Below the pieces are notes generated by a model that had not been told where the DNA came from, ran no database searches, and saw nothing but the letters and a program-made list of their open reading frames with translations. Below, piece after piece: positions 12,282 to 63,585 of a stretch of DNA of 64,000 bases; position 1 is the stretch's first letter, and every line of letters starts with the position of its first letter. The stretch is taken from contig PCWA01000109.1 in the NCBI GenBank assembly GCA_002796125.1, forward strand, positions 65,347 through 129,346, written 5' to 3'. The stretch comes from Candidatus Ghiorseimicrobium undicola. Lineage in GTDB: Bacteria; Omnitrophota; Gorgyraeia; Ghiorseimicrobiales; Ghiorseimicrobiaceae. The position numbers were made by a program, and so were the translations under genes.

Positions 12282-13205
12282 TTATTTAATAATAATATAG
12301 GCTTTTTCTTTAAGCCCGTTTACCCATTGGCTGAATTTTTCTTTCTTTTTTTCCTTTACAAGACGATCTTTGATCTCCGCCTCTATATCAGCCAGGGAAA
12401 GTTGCTCTTGGGGCTTCTTGCTCAATAGTTTAAAAATATAAAAACCGCCGTCGGTTTTAATTACGCCGGAGACCTGGCCTTCTTCAAGAGCAAAAATAGC
12501 CTCTTCTATATCACTAAGCAATTCGCCGCGGCCTACCACTCCCAAAGAAGCGCCAGAAGAAAATCTTCCTTTTACTTCTTCAAAATTTTCGCCATTACTC
12601 AACAAATTAAATGCCTCATCTATCCGGGCTTCGGAATCAGCATATATGGAATCTACTTCGGCTGTTTCAGGCTTCTTATACTCATCGCGGTGCGCCTGAT
12701 AATATGCGGTTATTTCTGTGGGGCTTACGGTTATCGCTTTATTCACGTTTACATCAACTATAGAGGCCATCATCATCTGCTCTTTTATTCTCTTGCGTAA
12801 ATCTGCCGGCGTTAGCCCCTGCGCTATCAATGAATCCTGAAAATCATTATCGCTTGCAAACCTTTCCTTGAGCTCCTTATATCTTTCATCAACAGCCCTC
12901 TCTGATATTTCCAACCCTTTGTGTTTTGCTTCTTCTAATATTAATTTATCTTCAATGAGACGTTTTAAAGCATCCGGCTGTTTTTTAATTATTTCTTCCT
13001 CTTTGCGTTCTTCTGAATAATTTTCAGGCAACTGCATATAAAAAACAGCCAGTAATTCATCGATATCGCTCTGGGTAATAATCTCATTATTTACGATAGC
13101 CACTATCCTATCTTGTGCCAGCTGCGTCCCTGGATGATCCTGGGCGCAGGCAGAAGGGATAATTACAAATAAAAACATAAAACTTAAAAAATAAAAGTAT
13201 TTCAT
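12282..13205 (-). CDS. Periplasmic peptidyl-prolyl cis-trans isomerase, SurA/PrsA family (one parvulin domain)
   Basis: Signal peptide, then a SurA-like N-domain, then a PpiC/parvulin domain (GGDLGVVGRGELLSDIEEA). The E. coli-like surA-pdxA-ksgA order is preserved. Confidence 0.75.
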   Translation of the reverse strand: MKYFYFLSFMFLFVIIPSACAQDHPGTQLAQDRIVAIVNNEIITQSDIDELLAVFYMQLPENYSEERKEEEIIKKQPDALKRLIEDKLILEEAKHKGLEISERAVDERYKELKERFASDNDFQDSLIAQGLTPADLRKRIKEQMMMASIVDVNVNKAITVSPTEITAYYQAHRDEYKKPETAEVDSIYADSEARIDEAFNLLSNGENFEEVKGRFSSGASLGVVGRGELLSDIEEAIFALEEGQVSGVIKTDGGFYIFKLLSKKPQEQLSLADIEAEIKDRLVKEKKKEKFSQWVNGLKEKAYIIIK

Positions 13206-17664: not shown

Positions 17665-17848
17665 AACTACCTCCTCGTATAATATAAGCAATACATTGTT
17701 AAATCCCAAATTACAAATAACAAATCACAAACAATATACAATATCAAAATTTCAATTACCAAAACTTATAGTCAAGGCAGAGTTTTTGGATATTTGGTCA
17801 TTGGCATTTATAATTTGTGATTTTTCATGTTATTACGCAAGAATAGCT

Positions 17849-19752: not shown

Positions 19753-20139
19753 TTATTTTTTAAATGCCAACTCCCTGTAAAAACAAGACCTGTTGCCTGT
19801 ATGGCAGGCTACTCCAGCCTGCCGCACCTTTATCAATAACGCGTCATTATCGCAATCATAACTAATCGATTTAACAAATTGAAAATGTCCGGATGTTTCG
19901 CCTTTTACCCAAAATTTCTTTCGCGAGCGTGACCAAAAACAAGTTTTCCCTAAACGGATTGTCCTTTTAATAGATGCCTTATTCATATAAGCAACCATAA
20001 GCACGTCTTTATTTTTATAATCCTGCACTATTACGGGAATCAATCCTTTTTCATCAAATTTAAACTTTGGCAACTTAGCAGTGTTTTTTCTTTTGCCCTC
20101 TGCCTTTTCTTTTTTGTCTTTTATCTTTTGTCTTTTCAT
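19753..20139 (-). CDS. hisI: Phosphoribosyl-AMP cyclohydrolase
   Basis: GLIPVIVQD...[14 protein letters not shown]...CDND.L...ACHTG. It overlaps hisF by 4 nt (ATGA). Confidence 0.88.
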
Positions 20140-20918
20140 ATCCTTATGCTGGCTCCTCGTTTTATTAAATAGTCCTTGACTTCTTTTACGGAAAACTCGC
20201 GATAATGGAATAAAGAAGCGGCCAGCGCCGCGTCTGCGCCGGCATCCGCCAATACTTCATAAAAATGCTCTAATCTTCCAGCCCCTCCTGAAGCAATGAC
20301 AGCTATATTGACCGCCCTGGAAACTGCCCGGGTTAATTCTGTATCGTAACCGTCCTTTGTACCGTCGCAATCCATGCTGGTTAATAAAACTTCGCCGGCA
20401 CCAAGGCCTTCGGCCTTCTTTACCCAATCTATAACATCTATGCCAGTAGACGTCCTCCCGCCATTTACATAAACTTCCCAATGTTTTGTATTATGTATTG
20501 GGTATTGCGTATTGGGTATTAATTTAGCGTCGATTGCCACCACGATACACTGGCTTCCAAAACGCTGAGATGTCTCTTTTATCAATCCGGGGTTTTTTAC
20601 TGCCGCCGTATTTATTGAAACTTTATCGGCCCCGGCATTAAGGAGCGCCCTTATATCATCAATATTGCGAACCCCTCCGCCGACGGTAAAAGGCATGAAT
20701 ATGCTTTCGGCTACTCTTTTGACTACATCCAAAATAATATCGCGTTTATCAGAACTTGCCGTAATGTCTAAAAAAACAAGCTCATCTGCTCCGGCCTTGT
20801 CATAATACACTGCATTTTCAACGGGGTCTCCGGCATCTTTCAAATCTTCAAATTTTACGCCTTTTACTACACGGCCGTCTTTAACATCTAAACAAGGTAT
20901 TATTCTTTTGGTCAACAT
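20136..20918 (-). CDS. hisF: Imidazole glycerol phosphate synthase cyclase subunit
   Basis: 260 aa, [16 protein letters not shown]... Confidence 0.93.
20487..20521. repeat. Five tandem 7-mer units (GTATTNN) inside hisF
   Basis: tgtatta tgtattg ggtattg cgtattg ggtatta encodes the loop [13 protein letters not shown] of HisF. Confidence 0.6.
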
Positions 20919-21680: not shown

Positions 21681-22304
21681 CTACAATTTAATAAAATTCT
21701 CCAATATTTTTAATCCTGCAGCCTGGCTCTTTTCCGGATGGAACTGTATGCCGAAAATATTATCTTTTGCGATAATAGAGGCGAACTTAAGTCCATAATC
21801 GGTTATAGCAACTACCACATCCTCATCGTCAGGCTTAACATAATACGAATGGCAAAAATATACATAAGAACCATCCGCTACATCTTTTAATATTTTTGCA
21901 TTTTGCGTTTTACTTTTCGCATTTATATCATTCCATCCTATATGCGGAACTTTTATTTTGGCTGATTTAAATTTCAGCACTTCGCCTTTAATTAATCCCA
22001 GGCCTTTGGCGCCCGGGCTTTCCTGACTCCGCTCGAGCAATAAATGCATCCCTAAACAGATACCTAAAAAAGGGGCCCCTTCCTGAATTTTAGCTTTTAA
22101 GGTTTCAAGTAATTTTCTCGCTTTTAATTCGGCTGCCGCCTCGCCGAAAGAGCCAACCCCCGGTAAAATAATCTTATCTGCATACTTTAGCTGTTCTGCT
22201 TCAGAAACAATTACGGCCTGGCTGCTGCCGCCAGCAAAACGGGCACAGGCATTCATAACGCTGCCTATGTTACCCATCCCATAATCAATAATAGCTATTC
22301 GCAC
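21681..22304 (-). CDS. hisH: Imidazole glycerol phosphate synthase glutaminase subunit
   Basis: 207-aa class-I amidotransferase (GICLGMHLL, HPE) with a GTG start at 22304. Confidence 0.92.
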   Translation of the reverse strand: MRIAIIDYGMGNIGSVMNACARFAGGSSQAVIVSEAEQLKYADKIILPGVGSFGEAAAELKARKLLETLKAKIQEGAPFLGICLGMHLLLERSQESPGAKGLGLIKGEVLKFKSAKIKVPHIGWNDINAKSKTQNAKILKDVADGSYVYFCHSYYVKPDDEDVVVAITDYGLKFASIIAKDNIFGIQFHPEKSQAAGLKILENFIKL

Positions 22305-23072: not shown

Positions 23073-23176
23073 CACAATGGCACAGCGGCGCGATTTCCCA
23101 GCAAGGAAACACTGGCGCAATACAATTAAGCGCTAGGTGTTAAGTAAGCGCTGGCTGCCTTATAAACGCAAAGTGT

Positions 23177-43752: not shown

Positions 43753-43966
43753 CTAATGAGCCCACAACTTACGGAGGCAAAGCCGACGTAAGTTGTATGG
43801 GCGAATTATTCCGATGGCTGCAAGTAGATTTCGCAGAAATCTACGCAGTGTTTAGCCATCGGGAAATGAGCGCATCCGCCTACGGCGAAATCTGCGCGAA
43901 TTATCCCGAAGCCTATCGGGGAAATCTCGAAGAGATTTACCCGATGCTTAGGCGAGGGGAATGAGC
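43753..43966 (-). repeat. Composite intergenic mosaic G inside the opp operon, between oppC and oppD
   Basis: Four parts in order. First a long-stem family-1 element (43753-43810). Then a 9-bp-stem hairpin CCGATGGCT...AGCCATCGG (43811-43862). Then a short-stem family-1 element (43863-43906). Then a hairpin U module ending GGCGAGGGGAATGAGCC at the oppC stop. Confidence 0.6.
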
Positions 43967-46006: not shown

Positions 46007-46118
46007 AATTGGCAATGTAAAATTAAAAATACAGAATTTAAAATCATAATTAAAAATTTAAAAATGAATTAAAACTTTTAATTTACAATTATAATTTTTC
46101 AATTTTCATTTTTAACTT
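46007..46118. other. About 90% A+T spacer between oppA and oppB with imperfect dyad symmetry
   Basis: aattaaaaatttaaaaatgaattaaaacttttaatttacaattataatttttcaattttcatttttaactttt. Confidence 0.4.
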
Positions 46119-47864
46119 TTAATTTTTAATGTATATTTCTTCCAAATTATGAAAAGCCCCTCCGAAACTTGAGAGTTTTAAATTACCGAATTTATTGCGC
46201 ACGGCAAACATGGAGTCTGACAATACGGTATAAATTAAAGGCAGTTCTTTTGAGACAATCACCTGCCATTCATCATAGAGCGATTTTCGGTTCTTTTCAT
46301 CCAATTCCTGAACCGCTAAATCGAAGATTTCATCAATGCGCCTCTCCCATGATGTTTGAGGGCTAAGCTGCTCAGGATTCCACATATGAAGGCGGCCGCT
46401 GGATGCCCAAACATTCCTGCCGAAATGCGGCTCAATGCCTCCAGTTAAGCCGATAATCATGGCATCCCAGTCAAAGGTAGAAGTAAGCCGCTGGACAAGA
46501 TTATTGAATTCCAAAGGTAAAAAATTAACCTTTATGCCGATACGGGATAAATCATTGCTGATAATAGCGGCCATCTGTATTCTCTGATTATCCTGCGCGC
46601 TGGTATAAAGGCTAAATTCTATATCCTTGCCATTTTCATCTTCCAGCAAACCATCGCCGTCAATATCCTTATATCCTGATTCATCCAAAATATCACGCGC
46701 CTTATCTAAATCATAATCATAGGCCTCAACATCGGGATTATAGAAAAATCCTGCCGATGGGCTCATAGCTGAATCCTGCGCGATACCAAATCCATTCATC
46801 AGGATTTGAATAATCATTTCCTTGTCTATGGAATGGGCTATTGCTTTTCTAAAATTTACATCTTTAAACCATCCCAATTTATTGGCGTTAATATAGGGTT
46901 TGTTGGACCGCGGATTTAGGCCGCTGTTTTGATTAAATACTATAAAATTACTGCCAAACGCGGGGCCGGTATTGTAAATAGTAAAATCCCTTTCCTTCTC
47001 TTTCGGCTTGAGCAGTGGGTAATCCGTCCCCCTCAACGAATAATAATCAATTTCTCCATCTAGAAATTTCAACAAGGCCGTGTCCTGATTACCCAATATA
47101 ATAAAAATTATTTTTTCCATATAGGGAAGGTTATTTCCGTTTTTGTCCCGCCTATAATAATCCGGGTTCCTCCTTAAAACTATCCGCTCGCCGGGGATAT
47201 ATTGCGAAAGCATGAAAGGGCCTGTCCCGATAATCTCTGAAGGTTTGGAATCCGCCCCCCAGGTAAAATTAAATTTTCCGTTTTCAACAGACGATTCTAA
47301 AATATGTTTGGGCAGGATTTCTGTAGACATCGCCCTTAAAAAAGGCGCGAATTTCTTAGGCAGTATAAATCGCACATGAAATTCATCTATCTTTTGAACC
47401 TTGACAGGCTGGCCTTCTATGCTGAAGATATCCCTGGCAGAATTTGGTATATCATCATTATAGATAAGTTTATTAAAGGTAAAAATTACGTCATCGGCGC
47501 TGAATCTTTCGCCGTCAAACCATACAACATCCCTGCGTAATTTAAAATCCCAGACAAGGCCGCTCTTATCTACGCTCCAGCTTAATGCTAAAGCCGGCTC
47601 AACGGCAAGGGTCAAACCATTGGTCCTGGTCAGGCCTTCAAATATAATCTGTGTGATGGATGTAGTGGATGTTTCTTTGGCAAGGATAGGATTAAAAGAC
47701 CGGGGATCGGATGTCGCAGCCAGAATAAGTTCTCCGCCATATTTTGTATCAGCTGAAAATCCGGGCCTAAAACCGCAAAAAAAAGCCAAGAAAAAAATAA
47801 GTGCCGGGAATAAACGGGATAAATTGCTGTCTTTATTATTTTGCCGCAGGCTGAACCTCAACAT
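46119..47864 (-). CDS. Oligopeptide ABC transporter substrate-binding protein (family 5 SBP)
   Basis: The start is probably the ATG at 47864 (MLRFSL... signal peptide). The track start at 47897 overlaps secG by 62 nt. Confidence 0.8.
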   Translation of the reverse strand: MLRFSLRQNNKDSNLSRLFPALIFFLAFFCGFRPGFSADTKYGGELILAATSDPRSFNPILAKETSTTSITQIIFEGLTRTNGLTLAVEPALALSWSVDKSGLVWDFKLRRDVVWFDGERFSADDVIFTFNKLIYNDDIPNSARDIFSIEGQPVKVQKIDEFHVRFILPKKFAPFLRAMSTEILPKHILESSVENGKFNFTWGADSKPSEIIGTGPFMLSQYIPGERIVLRRNPDYYRRDKNGNNLPYMEKIIFIILGNQDTALLKFLDGEIDYYSLRGTDYPLLKPKEKERDFTIYNTGPAFGSNFIVFNQNSGLNPRSNKPYINANKLGWFKDVNFRKAIAHSIDKEMIIQILMNGFGIAQDSAMSPSAGFFYNPDVEAYDYDLDKARDILDESGYKDIDGDGLLEDENGKDIEFSLYTSAQDNQRIQMAAIISNDLSRIGIKVNFLPLEFNNLVQRLTSTFDWDAMIIGLTGGIEPHFGRNVWASSGRLHMWNPEQLSPQTSWERRIDEIFDLAVQELDEKNRKSLYDEWQVIVSKELPLIYTVLSDSMFAVRNKFGNLKLSSFGGAFHNLEEIYIKN

Positions 47865-48256: not shown

Positions 48257-48443
48257 CAATGAGCACATCCGCCTACGGCGAGATAAGTGCGAATTGATCT
48301 CCTTGCTTAAACAAGGGGTAAATTCTCTTCGAGAATTTCCCCCTTAAGCTTCGGAGTAGGTTAGAACTTATTAAGCTTAAACCTACCCGCAGCCTATCGG
48401 GGAAATTTCGAAGAAATTTACCCGATGCTTAGGCAAGGGATAA
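48257..48443 (-). repeat. Composite mosaic D downstream of tpiA: family-1 element, U1 hairpin, central hairpin, U2 hairpin
   Basis: Positions 48289-48395 are 105/107 identical to 49254-49360. U1 is GGGGTAAATTCTCTTCGAGAATTTCCCC, the central hairpin is GGAGTAGGTT...AACCTACCC, and U2 is ATCGGGGAAATTTCGAAGAAATTTACCCGAT. Confidence 0.7.
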
Positions 48444-49203: not shown

Positions 49204-49463
49204 TTAATGAGCGCGTAACTTACGGAGTTCGAAGAACGACGTAAGTTATCTGCGCGAATTAATCTCCTTGCTTAAACAAGGGGTAAATTCTCTTCGAGAA
49301 TTTCCCCCTTAAGCTTCGGAGTAGGTTAGAACTTATTAAGCTTAAACCTACCCACAGCCTGCCCACAAGGGCGGGCCATCCTAATACCTTTAAAGGATGG
49401 GCCCTATCGGGTAAATATCGTAGAGATTTACCCGATGTTTAGGCGAGGGATAATGGCCATATT
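49204..49463 (-). repeat. Composite mosaic H upstream of tpiA: long-stem family-1 element, U1, central hairpin, a GC-rich hairpin, U2
   Basis: It contains the same 107-bp block as mosaic D, plus an extra GGGCCATCC...GGATGGGCCC hairpin (49361-49404). Confidence 0.7.
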
Positions 49464-58959: not shown

Positions 58960-59005
58960 TTTAATAATTAAAAGTTAAAAAATGAAAAATTTATTTTTTT
59001 AGCGA

Positions 59006-60882: not shown

Positions 60883-62418
60883 TTACAATGTCCAGAGGTT
60901 GCGGTCAAGGCAGCGGTAGCTGATTGCCTCAGATATGTGCTCGCTTTTGATTGTTTCTGAGGCGGATAAATCAGCGATAGTGCGCGAAATTTTAAGAATC
61001 TTATGATATGCGCGCGCGCTCAAACCCAGGTTTAAAATAGCCATTTTTAATAGTTCCTTGGCGTCTTCCGTTAATATGCATACTTTTTCGGTCGTAGGCG
61101 CGTTCATGTGCGCGTTATAGCAATATCCAAATTCTTTTAGTTTTTTCTCCTGAATCTGCCGGGCTTTATTTACTCTTTCTCTTATTTCCAAGGACGTTTC
61201 CGCCTTGTTTTTTAAGGCCATCTGTTCATACTTTAGGCGGGGAACCTCTAAGTGAATATCAATTCTATCCAACAGCGGCCCGGAAATCTTAGAAAGATAC
61301 CGCTGTATCTGATGAGGGCTGCAATGGCATTGCCGGGAATCGTCTAAAAAAAACCCGCAGGGACAGGGATTACAGGCAGAAATAAGAATAAAACGCGCCG
61401 GAAAACTTACCGTGGAGGCAATCCTGGAAACCGTAATATAACCTGCCTCTAACGGCTGTCTTAGCGCCTCAAGCACATTGCGCCTGAATTCAGGCAATTC
61501 ATCTAAAAAAAGCACGCCGTTATGGCTTAGACTGATCTCACCAGGTTTAGGATGAGTACCGCCGCCGATTAAGGCCACATCGCTGATAGAATGATGCGGC
61601 GCGCGAAAAGGCCTGTCTGAAATAACAGTCCGGCCGTTTGAAATAAGACCGGCCACGCTATGGATTTTAGTTGTTTCTAAAGCTTCCTGGATAGTCGCCT
61701 GCGGCAGGATACCGGGCATGCACTTAGCCAGCATAGTTTTCCCCGCTCCGGGAGAACCGATAAGCAAAAGATTATGCCCGCCCGCGGCTGCTACCTCTAA
61801 CCCTCTTTTGATATGCTGCTGCCCCTTAACATCAGCAAAATCAAACTCGTAACTTCCCTTGCCCTGCCAGAGGTTTTCCGTATCTACTTTTGTATTCTTA
61901 ATTTCAAGATCATTATTAAGATAAGCTGCGGCTTGACCAAGATTTTCTAACGCCAGGACTTCTATATCACCGACCACGGCTGCCTCTTTAGCATTTTCGG
62001 ACGGGAGTAGTAATTGCCTGTAATATGAGTTTCGCAAAGCCATAGCCCTTGGCAAAACGCCGGTAATCGGTTTTAAGCTTCCATCAAGAGAAAGCTCGCC
62101 ACAAAATACTTTACCGTTTAACGCCTCTTTATTTATCTGTCCGGTAGCAGCCAATACGCCTAAAGCAACCGGCAGGTCAAAACAAGGGCCTTCTTTTTTG
62201 ATATCGGCAGGAGCTAAATTTACCGTAATCTTCCTCCGGGGGAAGCTGAAACCACAGTTCTTAATCGCAGCCTTAACCCTATTAATGCTTTCGCGCACTA
62301 CCGCATCAGGCAGTCCTACGATAGAAAAACCGGGCAGCCCGCCTGACACATCCACCTCTACGGCAACCTTTATCGCCTCTATTCCTAAAACAGTGCTTGA
62401 AATGACTTTGGCCAACAT
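60883..62418 (-). CDS. comM: Mg-chelatase-like AAA+ ATPase ComM/YifB
   Basis: YifB family protein. I prefer the ATG at 62418 (MLAKVISSTVLGIEA) with a GGAGGGG RBS; the track's TTG start at 62460 adds an unlikely N-terminus. Confidence 0.85.
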   Translation of the reverse strand: MLAKVISSTVLGIEAIKVAVEVDVSGGLPGFSIVGLPDAVVRESINRVKAAIKNCGFSFPRRKITVNLAPADIKKEGPCFDLPVALGVLAATGQINKEALNGKVFCGELSLDGSLKPITGVLPRAMALRNSYYRQLLLPSENAKEAAVVGDIEVLALENLGQAAAYLNNDLEIKNTKVDTENLWQGKGSYEFDFADVKGQQHIKRGLEVAAAGGHNLLLIGSPGAGKTMLAKCMPGILPQATIQEALETTKIHSVAGLISNGRTVISDRPFRAPHHSISDVALIGGGTHPKPGEISLSHNGVLFLDELPEFRRNVLEALRQPLEAGYITVSRIASTVSFPARFILISACNPCPCGFFLDDSRQCHCSPHQIQRYLSKISGPLLDRIDIHLEVPRLKYEQMALKNKAETSLEIRERVNKARQIQEKKLKEFGYCYNAHMNAPTTEKVCILTEDAKELLKMAILNLGLSARAYHKILKISRTIADLSASETIKSEHISEAISYRCLDRNLWTL

Positions 62419-62440
62419 AACACCCCTCCACGAAAAGAAA

Positions 62441-62469
62441 ATGTAGAATTTAAAATGCAAAATGCATAA
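62441..62469. repeat. 7-mer-unit repeat block (AATGTAG/AATGCAT units) flanking the four-helix-bundle gene on its 3' side
   Basis: atgtagaatttaaaatgcaaaatgcataa. It shares AATGTAGAAT and AAAATGCATAAT blocks, in inverted orientation, with 62855-62884. Confidence 0.5.
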
Positions 62470-62835
62470 TTATAACTTCGAATTTTTGATAATCCTGATC
62501 AATATGCTTATAATTTGCTGACACTCTCCGCTTAAATAAGCAAAACGCTCCGCCTCCCCCTTCATTAATGCGGCATCGCGTATTAAATTTATCCACAGTT
62601 TCGTCTCTCGAGCCTCCTTAAGAGATATATTCATTTTATAAATAAAATCTTGTTTGCTAAAGGCGCTCTGGGCCTCTTCAATATTAGCAGCTATTGATGT
62701 GGCTGACCTCAAAAATTGTTTGCCGAGTTCAAAACCAGCAGTCTCCTTGGGTAAACTCCTCACAATTCTTACAACTTCAAGGGCAAAGTTATAAGTTCTA
62801 TTATCAATATCAACTTTGCATTTTTTATCTTGCAT
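62470..62835 (-). CDS. Four-helix-bundle protein of the 23S rRNA intervening-sequence / Avd family
   Basis: LRSATSIAANIEEAQ...KEARETKLWINLI. I prefer the ATG at 62835 with an AAGGGAGG RBS. Confidence 0.75.
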   Translation of the reverse strand: MQDKKCKVDIDNRTYNFALEVVRIVRSLPKETAGFELGKQFLRSATSIAANIEEAQSAFSKQDFIYKMNISLKEARETKLWINLIRDAALMKGEAERFAYLSGECQQIISILIRIIKNSKL

Positions 62836-62854
62836 TTTGTATCCTCCCTTCAAT

Positions 62855-62884
62855 TCTACATTCTACATTATGCATTTTACATTC
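62855..62884. repeat. Tandem 7-mers CTACATT CTACATT ATGCATT TTACATT flanking the four-helix-bundle gene on its 5' side
   Basis: It directly abuts the yraN stop codon at 62885. Confidence 0.5.
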
Positions 62885-63238
62885 TTAAAACGCGTCTTTA
62901 ATCAGGGTAATCTGCGGCTTCTCTCCAAATATAATAGATACTACATCAAACCTAAAGATTTCTTCCGAATGCGCGTTCCGCTTGATATAAAATTGGGCCG
63001 CGCGAAATAAATGTTTAATTTTTTCCCGGCTGATTGCCTCTTCCGGCCAGCCAAAATCAGGCGAACTCCTGGCCTTTACTTCAATAAACACCATCTCCCT
63101 TCCCTGGCGGGCGATAATATCTATTTCGCCCACCGGAGAAGAAAAATTCCTGGCAATAATCTTGTATCCTTTTCGGCGTAAAAACCGCAAGGCAAGCTCC
63201 TCGCCTTTTGCGCCCAAGATTTGTTTGTATTTATTCAT
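62885..63238 (-). CDS. YraN family endonuclease (UPF0102)
   Basis: 117-aa PD-(D/E)xK protein of the YraN family. Confidence 0.8.
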   Translation of the reverse strand: MNKYKQILGAKGEELALRFLRRKGYKIIARNFSSPVGEIDIIARQGREMVFIEVKARSSPDFGWPEEAISREKIKHLFRAAQFYIKRNAHSEEIFRFDVVSIIFGEKPQITLIKDAF

Positions 63239-63266
63239 AATTTAGTTACTAGTTACGAGTTACGAA

Positions 63267-63527
63267 TCACTGCTCTTGATATGCCTCCAGAACCGCTTCG
63301 TTAAGCTGGCTCTTGACTTCATCACTTAAAGGAAATATAGTTGGATACCATTGACCGTTCTTCCCTTGTTCAGACGGCATGCTCACAAACAATCCGTTTT
63401 TGCCTTCCACGACACGCAGGCCCTTCACTAAAAATAAATCAGCGATGGCCACATCGGCAAAAGCTTTAAGCTTGCCGTCGCCTTCTAACTTGTGCAGGCG
63501 TTTTACCGCAATAGCTGAACCCGACAT
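63267..63527 (-). CDS. spoVG: Putative septation protein SpoVG
   Basis: KAFADVAIADLFLVKGLRVVEGKNGLFVSMPS. I prefer the ATG at 63527 with a GAGGAGG RBS. Confidence 0.8.
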   Translation of the reverse strand: MSGSAIAVKRLHKLEGDGKLKAFADVAIADLFLVKGLRVVEGKNGLFVSMPSEQGKNGQWYPTIFPLSDEVKSQLNEAVLEAYQEQ

Positions 63528-63538
63528 CTTCTTCACCT

Positions 63539-63585
63539 CCTCAATGGACACATCCGCCGCAGGCGGATAAGTGCGCGTTAATCCC
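63539..63585 (-). repeat. Family-1 intergenic hairpin element, copy E, upstream of spoVG
   Basis: ccTCAATGGACacatccgccgcaggcggataagtgcgcGTTAATccc. Confidence 0.55.

Follow-up and report, generated by a model that had tools for sequence, protein, structure and literature searches.

A gene for a 121-aa four-helix-bundle protein, enclosed by inverted arrays of tandem heptanucleotides, lies between the operon genes yraN and comM of Candidatus Ghiorseimicrobium undicola. It was studied in a 64,000-nucleotide (nt) stretch of contig PCWA01000109.1 (positions 65,347 to 129,346), referred to below as the window. In the best-supported reading, the element is a cassette of the intervening-sequence (IVS) type encoding an S23p protein, located in an operon spacer rather than in rRNA. 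Its identity as an inserted cassette of the IVS/S23p class is very probable. The fuller statement, that it is an inserted selfish cassette of this type whose transcript forms a stem cut by RNase III, is favoured on balance; the RNase III step itself, put forward by analogy, is proposed only tentatively.

Structure of the cassette

The genes of the locus are all on the minus strand, in the order spoVG, yraN/UPF0102, 121-aa open reading frame (ORF), comM and carA. Its features are listed below, with the basis of each call in brackets (RBS, ribosome-binding site).

63551..63267, minus strand: spoVG
62885..63238, minus strand: yraN (UPF0102), host gene directly upstream, co-directional (Pfam PF02021, E 1e-29)
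62430..62884, minus strand: entire inserted segment, ~455 bp, from the yraN stop codon to the comM RBS (sister comparison, GC)
62850..62884, minus strand: upstream arm, five tandem heptamers GAATGTA AAATGCA TAATGTA GAATGTA GAATTGA (sequence reading, array scan)
62843..62848, minus strand: RBS of the cassette ORF, GGGAGG, 7 nt ahead of its ATG (sequence reading)
62470..62835, minus strand: gene of the 121-aa four-helix-bundle protein, PF05635/TIGR02436 (Pfam, NCBIfam, PDB match)
62440..62467, minus strand: downstream arm, ATGCATT TTGCATT TTAAATT CTACATT, four heptamers running inverted to those of the upstream arm (sequence reading, repeat search)
62423-62429, minus strand: comM's own RBS, GGAGGGG (sequence reading)
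62860..62885, minus strand: 5' half of the cassette-closing long-range inverted repeat (repeat search, folding, duplex energy)
62445..62470, minus strand: 3' half of the long-range inverted repeat (repeat search, folding, duplex energy)
60883..62418, minus strand: comM (Mg-chelatase-like AAA ATPase), host gene directly downstream, co-directional (Pfam)

A preliminary description of this DNA had proposed that the gene fills the yraN-comM gap between flanks made of 7-mers, and both points were confirmed. The ORF is separated from the yraN stop by 49 nt and from the comM ATG by 51 nt, and Tandem Repeats Finder (TRF) called period-7 arrays at both cassette flanks, on the yraN side at 62853-62885. 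The upstream arm begins right behind the yraN TAA and the downstream arm 2 nt past the stop codon of the cassette ORF. On the coding strand, the upstream spacer reads GAATGTA AAATGCA TAATGTA GAATGTA GAATTGA AGGGAGG ATACAAA, and the downstream spacer reads TT ATGCATT TTGCATT TTAAATT CTACATT TTCTTTTCGT GGAGGGG TGTT, followed by the comM ATG. The corresponding plus-strand letters are CTACATT CTACATT ATGCATT TTACATT (62856-62883) and AATGTAGAATTTAAAATGCAAAATGCATAATT (62440-62471). With five units upstream and four downstream, both flanks hold at least three head-to-tail 7-nt units in a spacer, as do repeats of the STRR type (short tandemly repeated repetitive sequences). The inserted segment starts exactly with the upstream array and ends 11 nt beyond the downstream array, just ahead of the comM RBS.

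At 62816-62843, where a 14-nt repeat occurs in the window, the heptamer periodicity extends into the first ORF codons, and in a homologous locus (L090, 3001-3030) the array AATGCAA AATGCAA AATTAAA AATTGAT does the same. Since the periodicity continues into the ORF at both loci, the start codon and N-terminal residues of the 'MQNAKLK' type are encoded by array units.

Comparison with sister lineages

Closer relatives were sought via ComM, and lineages with a ComM 82-84% identical were found. Three sister lineages keep the order sigma factor, hypothetical gene, spoVG, yraN, comM, without a PF05635 gene and without heptamers. Their spacers between the yraN stop and the comM start are as follows.

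L192/L193: 13 nt, AAGGAGGTGCGCC
L195/L196: 17 nt, AGGAGGTGCAAAATAAA
L194: 64 nt, heptamer-free, holding one copy of an unrelated hairpin repeat

The two genes are also adjacent or overlapping in two more distant genomes, L010 and L020. Because the sister lineages have only 13-64 nt at this place within the same gene order, segment 62430-62884 is an insertion; the comparison of yraN-comM spacing that the preliminary description had recommended thus uncovered empty sites, in agreement with its proposal of a small inserted cassette. The G+C content of the inserted segment is 35%, versus 42-47% in neighbouring genes, and that at third codon positions of the ORF is 37%, versus 44-52% in the neighbours. 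From these comparisons, the cassette appears to have entered the yraN-comM gap in the ancestor of this Omnitrophota species. No target-site duplication was recognisable when the filled site was compared with the empty sites of the sister genomes. The cassette encodes no recombinase, transposase or HUH nuclease, its sole Pfam family match being PF05635.

The exact protein was found on 11 contigs. Nine loci from different samples were retrieved, always at the yraN-comM site and identical from -400 to +300, so that copy-number variation and presence or absence are not informative for this species. In five Bacteroidetes-like contigs, a cassette occupies one orthologous site and its proteins have diverged to 64-75% identity, which indicates that such cassettes can be old residents; the arms at this site differ between genomes and stay complementary within each. 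For the window element, a past gain is supported and there is no evidence for recent movement. The mobility attributed to the cassette beforehand can accordingly be kept for the past insertion and not for the present, given the nine identical contigs and the other cassettes that stayed in place while their protein diverged.

The encoded protein

The 121-aa protein matches PF05635 over residues 9-113 (E 6e-22, 78 bits, cutoff 33.8) and the NCBIfam model TIGR02436, 'four helix bundle protein', with 98 bits against a cutoff of 24. The family profile matches chain A of PDB entry 2RLD (E 6e-41), which comprises five chains; fold and assembly are assigned by homology only. The protein is basic, with a pI of 9.3 (family median 9.4), and carries the conserved motif Q40..T46 S47..N51 E53 E54..K/E74 A75 E77 W81, whose columns are invariant in a 43-sequence alignment. 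A family motif GxxRxxxSxxxNxxE has been given before (Lin 2006 and Zhang 2014, as quoted in PMC3936711). The family is large, with 21,952 clusters at 50% identity at E <= 1e-3 and 10,402 at E <= 1e-10.

Avd, the accessory protein of diversity-generating retroelements (DGRs), is usually assigned to PF05635 (PMC10053308), and the gene had been described as Avd-like on this ground. Membership in PF05635/TIGR02436 was upheld, whereas a place among Avd proper was not: the DGR Avd equivalog model NF033474 is matched weakly, with 25.3 bits against a cutoff of 80. Like DGR Avd (PDB 4DWL; NF033474), the protein belongs to a superfamily of small, basic four-helix-bundle proteins that are pentameric and bind nucleic acid or a complex of reverse transcriptase (RT) and RNA. 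By its sequence it is 'Avd-like' only at this superfamily level and is assigned to the TIGR02436/23S-rRNA-IVS protein (S23p) branch. The absence of an RT and of a template/variable repeat (TR/VR) pair from the window, as first reported, was corroborated. No RVT Pfam family was present in the gene table 10 kb either side of the cassette, the only YxDD motif in a long ORF of the window belongs to a Band-7 protein, and none of 19 repeat families of at least 30 nt in the window is a TR/VR-like direct repeat. Likewise, no RT is listed in the gene tables obtained for homologous loci, and the empty site in the sister genomes is clean, without DGR debris. An orphan DGR remnant, in which an Avd gene would be left after loss of the RT, the template and the variable repeats, is therefore most improbable; this candidate was rejected on the Avd score and on the lack of an RT and a TR/VR pair.

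Heptamer arrays across the family

Across phyla, this gene family as a rule follows the order array, ORF, inverted array. The same flank design is seen in the closest homologues (57-62% identity), each co-directional in a different operon: between two ATPase genes of a type II secretion system, between pilN and pilO, between a polysaccharide export gene (Wza) and wzz, and between a pilin-cluster gene and mshE. Their arrays are of the (AAAATTA) type upstream and of the (TAATTTT) type downstream. When the DNA of seven cassettes from different contexts was aligned, homology stopped ~33 nt past the stop codon, which is the end of the downstream array; this 33-nt array, TTTTTCATTTTTAATTTTAAATTTTTAATT, is kept in five cassettes sitting in different operons, and homology ends directly after it.

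A metagenome scan with the 43-sequence alignment yielded 80 loci with 39-61% identity. The array statistics rest on 78 homologous loci, taken from cultured genomes and viral contigs as well as from metagenomes, heptamer units being counted from at least three consecutive ones. The flank units vary widely among metagenome loci (e.g. GAGTTAA, CAATGAA, GCAAAAG, GAAGAGT, GGATTTA), and tandem heptamers are found nearly everywhere. The best period-7 self-match in the 70-nt flanks averaged 0.70 and 0.73; within the ORF the value was 0.34, and over 2189 distant windows 0.39. Among periods 3 to 12, only period 7 was enriched. Arrays of at least three tandem units were present in 82% of the loci upstream and in 88% downstream; 73% of the loci have them on both sides and 97% on at least one, compared with 5.7% of 1272 control windows. 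Arrays most often count 4-5 units; downstream of the ORF they begin at the stop codon (median 1 nt), and upstream of it they finish ~14 nt short of the ATG. On the coding strand, upstream arrays are purine-rich in 77% of loci and downstream arrays pyrimidine-rich in 84%. The gene is co-directional with both neighbours in 33 of 53 loci and opposed to both in four, with median gaps of 45 and 48 nt.

The same design occurs in cultured organisms from four phyla and was seen on plasmids (upstream and downstream units, where both are given, are separated by a slash).

Nostoc punctiforme (pNPUN01, L179): GTCGGAG / CGACCTC
Anabaena cylindrica (pANACY.01, L180), between cas2 and cas1: AAGTAAA type
Planktothrix plasmid (L181): AATCCCC, AATCGTA / CGATTTA
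Bernardetia: arrays present
Treponema: GGAAAGN / CGCTCTC
Chlorohelix plasmid (L184): GGATTTT

Among 2.9 million viral contigs only two hits were obtained, both with perfect arrays (in L189, AATTCGT x4, ORF, TTACGAA x4), and 50,697 phage records gave two hits, in gut phages, both without arrays and without an RT motif. Phages are thus not the usual vehicle, since hits are so few, and the two gut-phage copies show that arrays are not universal in the family.

When optimally rotated, 65 distinct flank heptamers fit one frame, R-K-K-N-N-R-A, in which four positions are constrained and three free. An A fills position 7 in 97% of them and a purine (A or G) position 1 in 94%; T or G stands at position 2 in 97% and at position 3 in 91%. 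This frame carries 5.04 bits of information, versus 4.04 +/- 0.09 for composition-matched natural 7-mers, a difference that is inflated because the heptamers are not phylogenetically independent. Stop codons in every reading frame were considered as a reason for the 7-nt unit; by eye, many heptamers, not all, contain one, as A/T-rich 7-mers would anyway.

At four plasmid-borne loci (L180, L184, L179, L181), all with heptamer flanks, the gene is wedged in defence or mobile-element operons. In A. cylindrica it lies between cas2 and cas1 in opposite orientation; among the other three, one copy has a DUF1156 protein on one side and a Swt1-like HEPN protein on the other, one adjoins TnsA and XisH/XisI, and one lies between a helicase and a large protein. 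A variant arrangement, in which an upstream-type array (U) is followed directly by a downstream-type array (D), the ORF and a second D array, was seen in L105/L103 and in Treponema saccharophilum pTS1 (L183), where 16 or more units are present. In the Chlorohelix locus, the ORF stands between duplicate copies of a composite hairpin of ~100 nt. These variants look like insertions into pre-existing arrays. Seven metagenome contigs (L124, L146, L104, L142, L135, L145, L173) end inside heptamer arrays or ~25-85 nt from them, as assembly breaks are expected at multi-copy repeats.

Pairing of the arms and proposed fate of the transcript

The flanks had been described as inverted copies of each other, and this was verified: the arms at 62445-62470 and 62860-62885 (26 nt) are 85% complementary, and those at 62440-62471 and 62852-62883 (32 nt) are 75% complementary. 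With these arms, the window cassette has the complementary termini that enclose an IVS in a stem. The long-range stem was present in both the minimum-free-energy and the centroid fold of the 471-nt transcript. Over the family, the flank-flank duplex energy averaged -29 kcal/mol, versus -20 for shuffled, -19 for cross-locus and -20 for same-sense pairs. Moreover, in 62% of 45 loci, rotating the reverse complement of the downstream consensus heptamer gives the upstream one with at most one mismatch, versus 11% in cross-locus comparisons. Taken alone, the pairing in the window is modestly better than chance; it is the recurrence throughout the family that makes chance untenable.

In the proposed mechanism, the cassette gene would be transcribed by read-through from the host operon. 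Such expression is likely because the gene has its own RBS, no convincing promoter and the direction of the operon; the only sigma-70 candidate matches 9/12 positions inside the upstream array, and the count of such sites is not above that in shuffles. In the transcript, the arms would pair over ~30 positions, extruding the ORF as the loop of a long stem and bringing the end of yraN beside the comM leader. Judging from the IVS elements with the same gene in the 23S rRNA of Coxiella and Leptospira, this stem could be a substrate of RNase III, whose cut would free an ORF-bearing cassette RNA, with the yraN and comM parts remaining usable. If so, the release of the cassette RNA by RNase III would account for the tolerance of such cassettes inside operons and rRNA.

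Several observations weigh against this mechanism. In the window, the stem is A/U-rich and weak: its duplex energy of -23 kcal/mol is equalled by 3.8% of 1000 shuffles, and whole-region folding gave z-scores of only -1.4 to -1.7. The arm mismatches of the family bear no G.U signature (42 sense-compatible versus 39 antisense-compatible transitions, 175 transversions), so that complementarity may be kept at the DNA level and not by selection for RNA pairing. None of the 40 homologous loci scanned lies in rRNA, and no RNase III cleavage of an mRNA-borne family member was found in the literature. The stem also leaves unexplained the tandem 7-mer make-up of the arms, their shared degenerate frame, and the unpaired single arrays and in-frame arrays of the same genome. 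For the window element, a position within rRNA was itself rejected, as it is flanked by yraN and comM and Rfam finds no rRNA in the window, only two tRNAs.

Possible alternative roles of the arrays

Alternatively, the arrays could be binding sites of the encoded protein, much as the trp leader repeats serve the trp RNA-binding attenuation protein (TRAP), with one unit per subunit of a basic homopentameric toroid. About five tandem heptamers of RNA or single-stranded DNA would then be bound, which could lead to autoregulation and, via arrays dispersed among the 5' leaders of host genes, to a wider post-transcriptional effect. We consider this analogy rather unlikely to describe the system. That the protein may recognise the repeats is suggested by the RKKNNRA frame of the 65 heptamers, the modal 4-5 units, the basic charge of the protein and the pentameric ring of the family, known from the five chains of 2RLD and from the homopentameric toroid of Xanthomonas S23p (Lin 2006, cited in PMC4990558). 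The invariance of the polar motif TSIxANIxEA...KEAxET..W, the purine-rich coding strand of most upstream arrays, and the solo arrays directly before the start codons of yraN and carB, as for the TAACTGA repeats (PMC4679880), point the same way. Against it, only one arm presents the motif on the mRNA and the other presents its complement, the protein motif is invariant despite large differences in the heptamers from lineage to lineage, the window holds several heptamer classes and only one such gene, and the information-content statistic is inflated, as noted above.

A DNA-level role, in which the arms are ends or recombination substrates of a non-autonomous mobile element and RNA pairing is incidental, is also unlikely, and to us slightly more so. 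The relation could be similar to that of REPIN and RAYT, or the element could move by homologous recombination between arrays pre-existing in spacers. The lack of G.U bias in the arm mismatches would fit, as would the gene-less inverted heptamer hairpins at 46033-46140 and ~17700-17800 and the solo arrays elsewhere in the window. Further support comes from the common downstream array TTTTTCATTTTTAATTTTAAATTTTTAATT of five cassettes in different operons, from the U-D-ORF-D variants (L105, Treponema L183) and the duplicated hairpin of Chlorohelix, which resemble insertions into existing arrays, and from the many metagenome contigs that break at arrays. However, the cassette encodes no transposase, HUH nuclease or recombinase, the window insert shows no target-site duplication or recent movement, and the sister empty sites offer no heptamer array as a possible target. 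The orientation bias (33 loci co-directional with both neighbours, four opposed) would moreover be erased by free recombination between inverted arms. The proposed roles of the arrays as RNA stem, as protein-bound repeats and as DNA-level ends are not mutually exclusive. A chance arrangement, with 7-mer repeats occurring by accident in the A/T-rich spacers of an ordinary small resident gene, would agree with the marginal stem statistics of the window and with the arrays in several other spacers of the genome. It is next to inconceivable in view of the family-wide array and complementarity statistics, the absence of the cassette from sister genomes, and the recurrence of the architecture with G+C-rich heptamers (GTCGGAG in Nostoc, CGCTCTC in Treponema).

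Other repeats in the window

Period-7 arrays occur elsewhere in the window, so that such repeats are not unique to the yraN-comM gap. At least nine were counted in 64 kb, versus 1.4 per 100 kb in 80 control loci. The preliminary description had allowed that its repeats might be a generic feature of A/T-rich spacers; the arrays are indeed found at other places, yet they are a specific period-7 class and not A/T-rich low complexity. One of them forms a hairpin that lacks a gene.

46033..46140, minus strand: gene-less hairpin of inverted heptamer arrays between two co-directional genes (repeat search, TRF, RNA fold)

Its 36-nt arms, 75% complementary, enclose a 36-nt loop, and it is 71% identical to the comM-side flank of the cassette. 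A second gene-less inverted-heptamer hairpin lies at ~17700-17800, after rpsP, between co-directional genes. Both could be ORF-less counterparts or remnants of the cassette.

Unpaired arrays are located at gene boundaries at 63241-63268, 58961-58988, 13170-13197 and 20104-20138 of the window, and at 6235-6320 of L001; the array density is 9.4 per 100 kb, versus 1.4 in the 80 control loci. Right before the yraN ATG stands GTAACTC GTAACTA GTAACTA, which resembles the TAACTGA repeats (PMC4679880); right before carB stands TTTTCAT TTTTTAA CTTTTAA, which resembles the downstream arm of related cassettes; and a GAAAAGA-type array lies at the hisF-hisI junction. Two arrays are in frame within coding sequences. 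In hisF (20136..20918, minus strand), AATACCC AATACGC AATACCC AATACAT AATACAA (20482-20522) encodes a loop of HisF, and in hisH (21681..22304, minus strand), AAATGCG AAAAGTA AAACGCA AAATGCA AAAATAT (21894-21924) encodes NAKSKTQNAKILK. The HisF array coincides with a 9-residue insertion (TQYPIHNTK) relative to what we take to be the sequence of Thermotoga HisF.

Repeats of other kinds are also present. An unrelated dispersed hairpin of 5' leaders, AATTCGCAC..GCC..GGC..GTGCTCATTGAGGAGG, ends in the RBS of the downstream gene (e.g. spoVG); its sites, of ~50 nt each, are at 23171, 35060, 40098, 43754, 43865, 48251 and 63536. A copy of it (L194, 1937-2000) fills the yraN-comM spacer that the cassette occupies in the window. 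The 31-nt palindrome ATCGGGGAAATCTCGAAGAGATTTACCCGAT occurs three times (43915-43945, 48396-48426 and 49406-49436), and a 107-nt segment is duplicated with 98% identity, 965 nt apart, at 48289-48395 and 49254-49360.

Relation to known systems

The closest known relative of the cassette is the IVS in the 23S rRNA of Coxiella burnetii, a selfish element of 428 nt whose S23p ORF belongs to this family. Its 28-bp terminal inverted-repeat stem is cut by RNase III in vitro, with the 5' cut at the start of the first of two to three tandem heptamers (GACAGAT) that lie directly upstream of the ORF and vary in number between strains, and its G+C is below that of the host (Warrier et al. 2016, PMC4990558). 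The window element is like the S23p IVS of Coxiella and Leptospira in protein family, in size (~430-460 nt), in having the ORF within stem-forming complementary termini, in the tandem heptamers directly upstream of the ORF start and in a G+C below the host; such elements are regarded as selfish and horizontally acquired. Unlike them, it lies between two protein-coding operon genes and not in helix 45 of 23S rRNA, and both its arms consist wholly of heptamers; excision by RNase III was demonstrated for the rRNA elements and is presumed for the window element. The Leptospira intervening sequences encoding an S23p/23S_rRNA_IVP protein were reportedly described by Ralph and McClelland in 1993.

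The STRR heptamer repeats of heterocystous cyanobacteria are said to have been described by Mazel in 1990. The arms of the cassette are similar to the known heptamer repeats (STRR, TAACTGA, GGGAATC/GGGGAYT), which consist of 2-14 tandem 7-mers in spacers, often forward right before a start codon, and which are found in the very taxa where TIGR02436 genes abound. Tandem TAACTGA heptamers were found in spacers of Beggiatoaceae, cyanobacteria and Bacteroidetes, with no mechanism evident for their distribution (MacGregor 2015, PMC4679880), and GGGAATC/GGGGAYT heptamers in Xanthomonas and Nostoc, their potential role being called open (Rehm et al. 2015, PMC4692102). Among the cassette flanks, the AATCCCC unit of Planktothrix is complementary to GGGGATT. 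In contrast to the window arms, the heptamers are treated in both papers as stand-alone simple-sequence repeats of unknown origin, and a text search of PMC4679880 and PMC4692102 gave no mention of '23S', 'intervening' or 'helix bundle'. Only the remark on the Coxiella IVS was found to link the protein family to heptamer repeats; coverage of subscription journals was poor, and an earlier description is possible. As far as could be found, the family-wide design of array, ORF and inverted array is apparently undescribed.

In the REPIN-RAYT system (reportedly Nunvar 2010; Bertels and Rainey 2011), a gene lies between inverted short repeats that are also dispersed, often as hairpin-forming pairs, in intergenic DNA. 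RAYT is an HUH/Y1 transposase, and the REPIN repeat is a palindrome of 20-30 nt. The window likewise has a single gene between inverted copies of a short, dispersed repeat, but its protein lacks an HUH/Y1 domain and its repeat is a tandem 7-mer array. TRAP is a ring-shaped homo-oligomer paired with a run of (G/U)AG repeats. The likeness consists in a ring-shaped oligomer together with short repeats that have a conserved core, free spacer positions and a copy number near the subunit number; the fold is different, and the likeness is one of analogy only. Compared with insertion sequences or miniature inverted-repeat transposable elements, the cassette has inverted arms, no transposase and no target duplication visible against the empty sites. 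From DGR Avd it is set apart by its score far below the equivalog cutoff and by the lack of an RT, TR or VR nearby.

Significance

Three literatures have been kept apart, namely those on the 23S rRNA IVS with its S23p gene, on the over-representation of heptanucleotide repeats, and on the very large orphan part of the Avd superfamily. Together, the window element and the 78 homologous loci show that gene and repeats come as one unit, which resides in operons as well as in rRNA. Annotators thereby gain a simple signature for such cassettes. The unit also explains why genes of this family appear among cas or secretion genes although they are no part of those systems; 18 of them were reported wedged in cas operons, e.g. 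between cmr3 and cmr2 (Zhang et al. 2014, PMC3936711). With its own heptamers as defined ligands and RNase III processing as a defined assay, the protein's function can now be tested.

A wider hypothesis, of rather low probability, pairs TIGR02436 proteins with the heptanucleotide tandem repeats of bacteria as their cognate partners, each pentamer recognising, and perhaps propagating, about five units of the RKKNNRA type. If true, the heptamers known since 1990 from cyanobacteria (STRR), Xanthomonas, Beggiatoaceae and Bacteroidetes and the 23S rRNA IVS would be faces of one gene-plus-repeat system, whose arrays would have spread into spacers, 5' leaders and coding loops such as those of hisF and hisH in the window.

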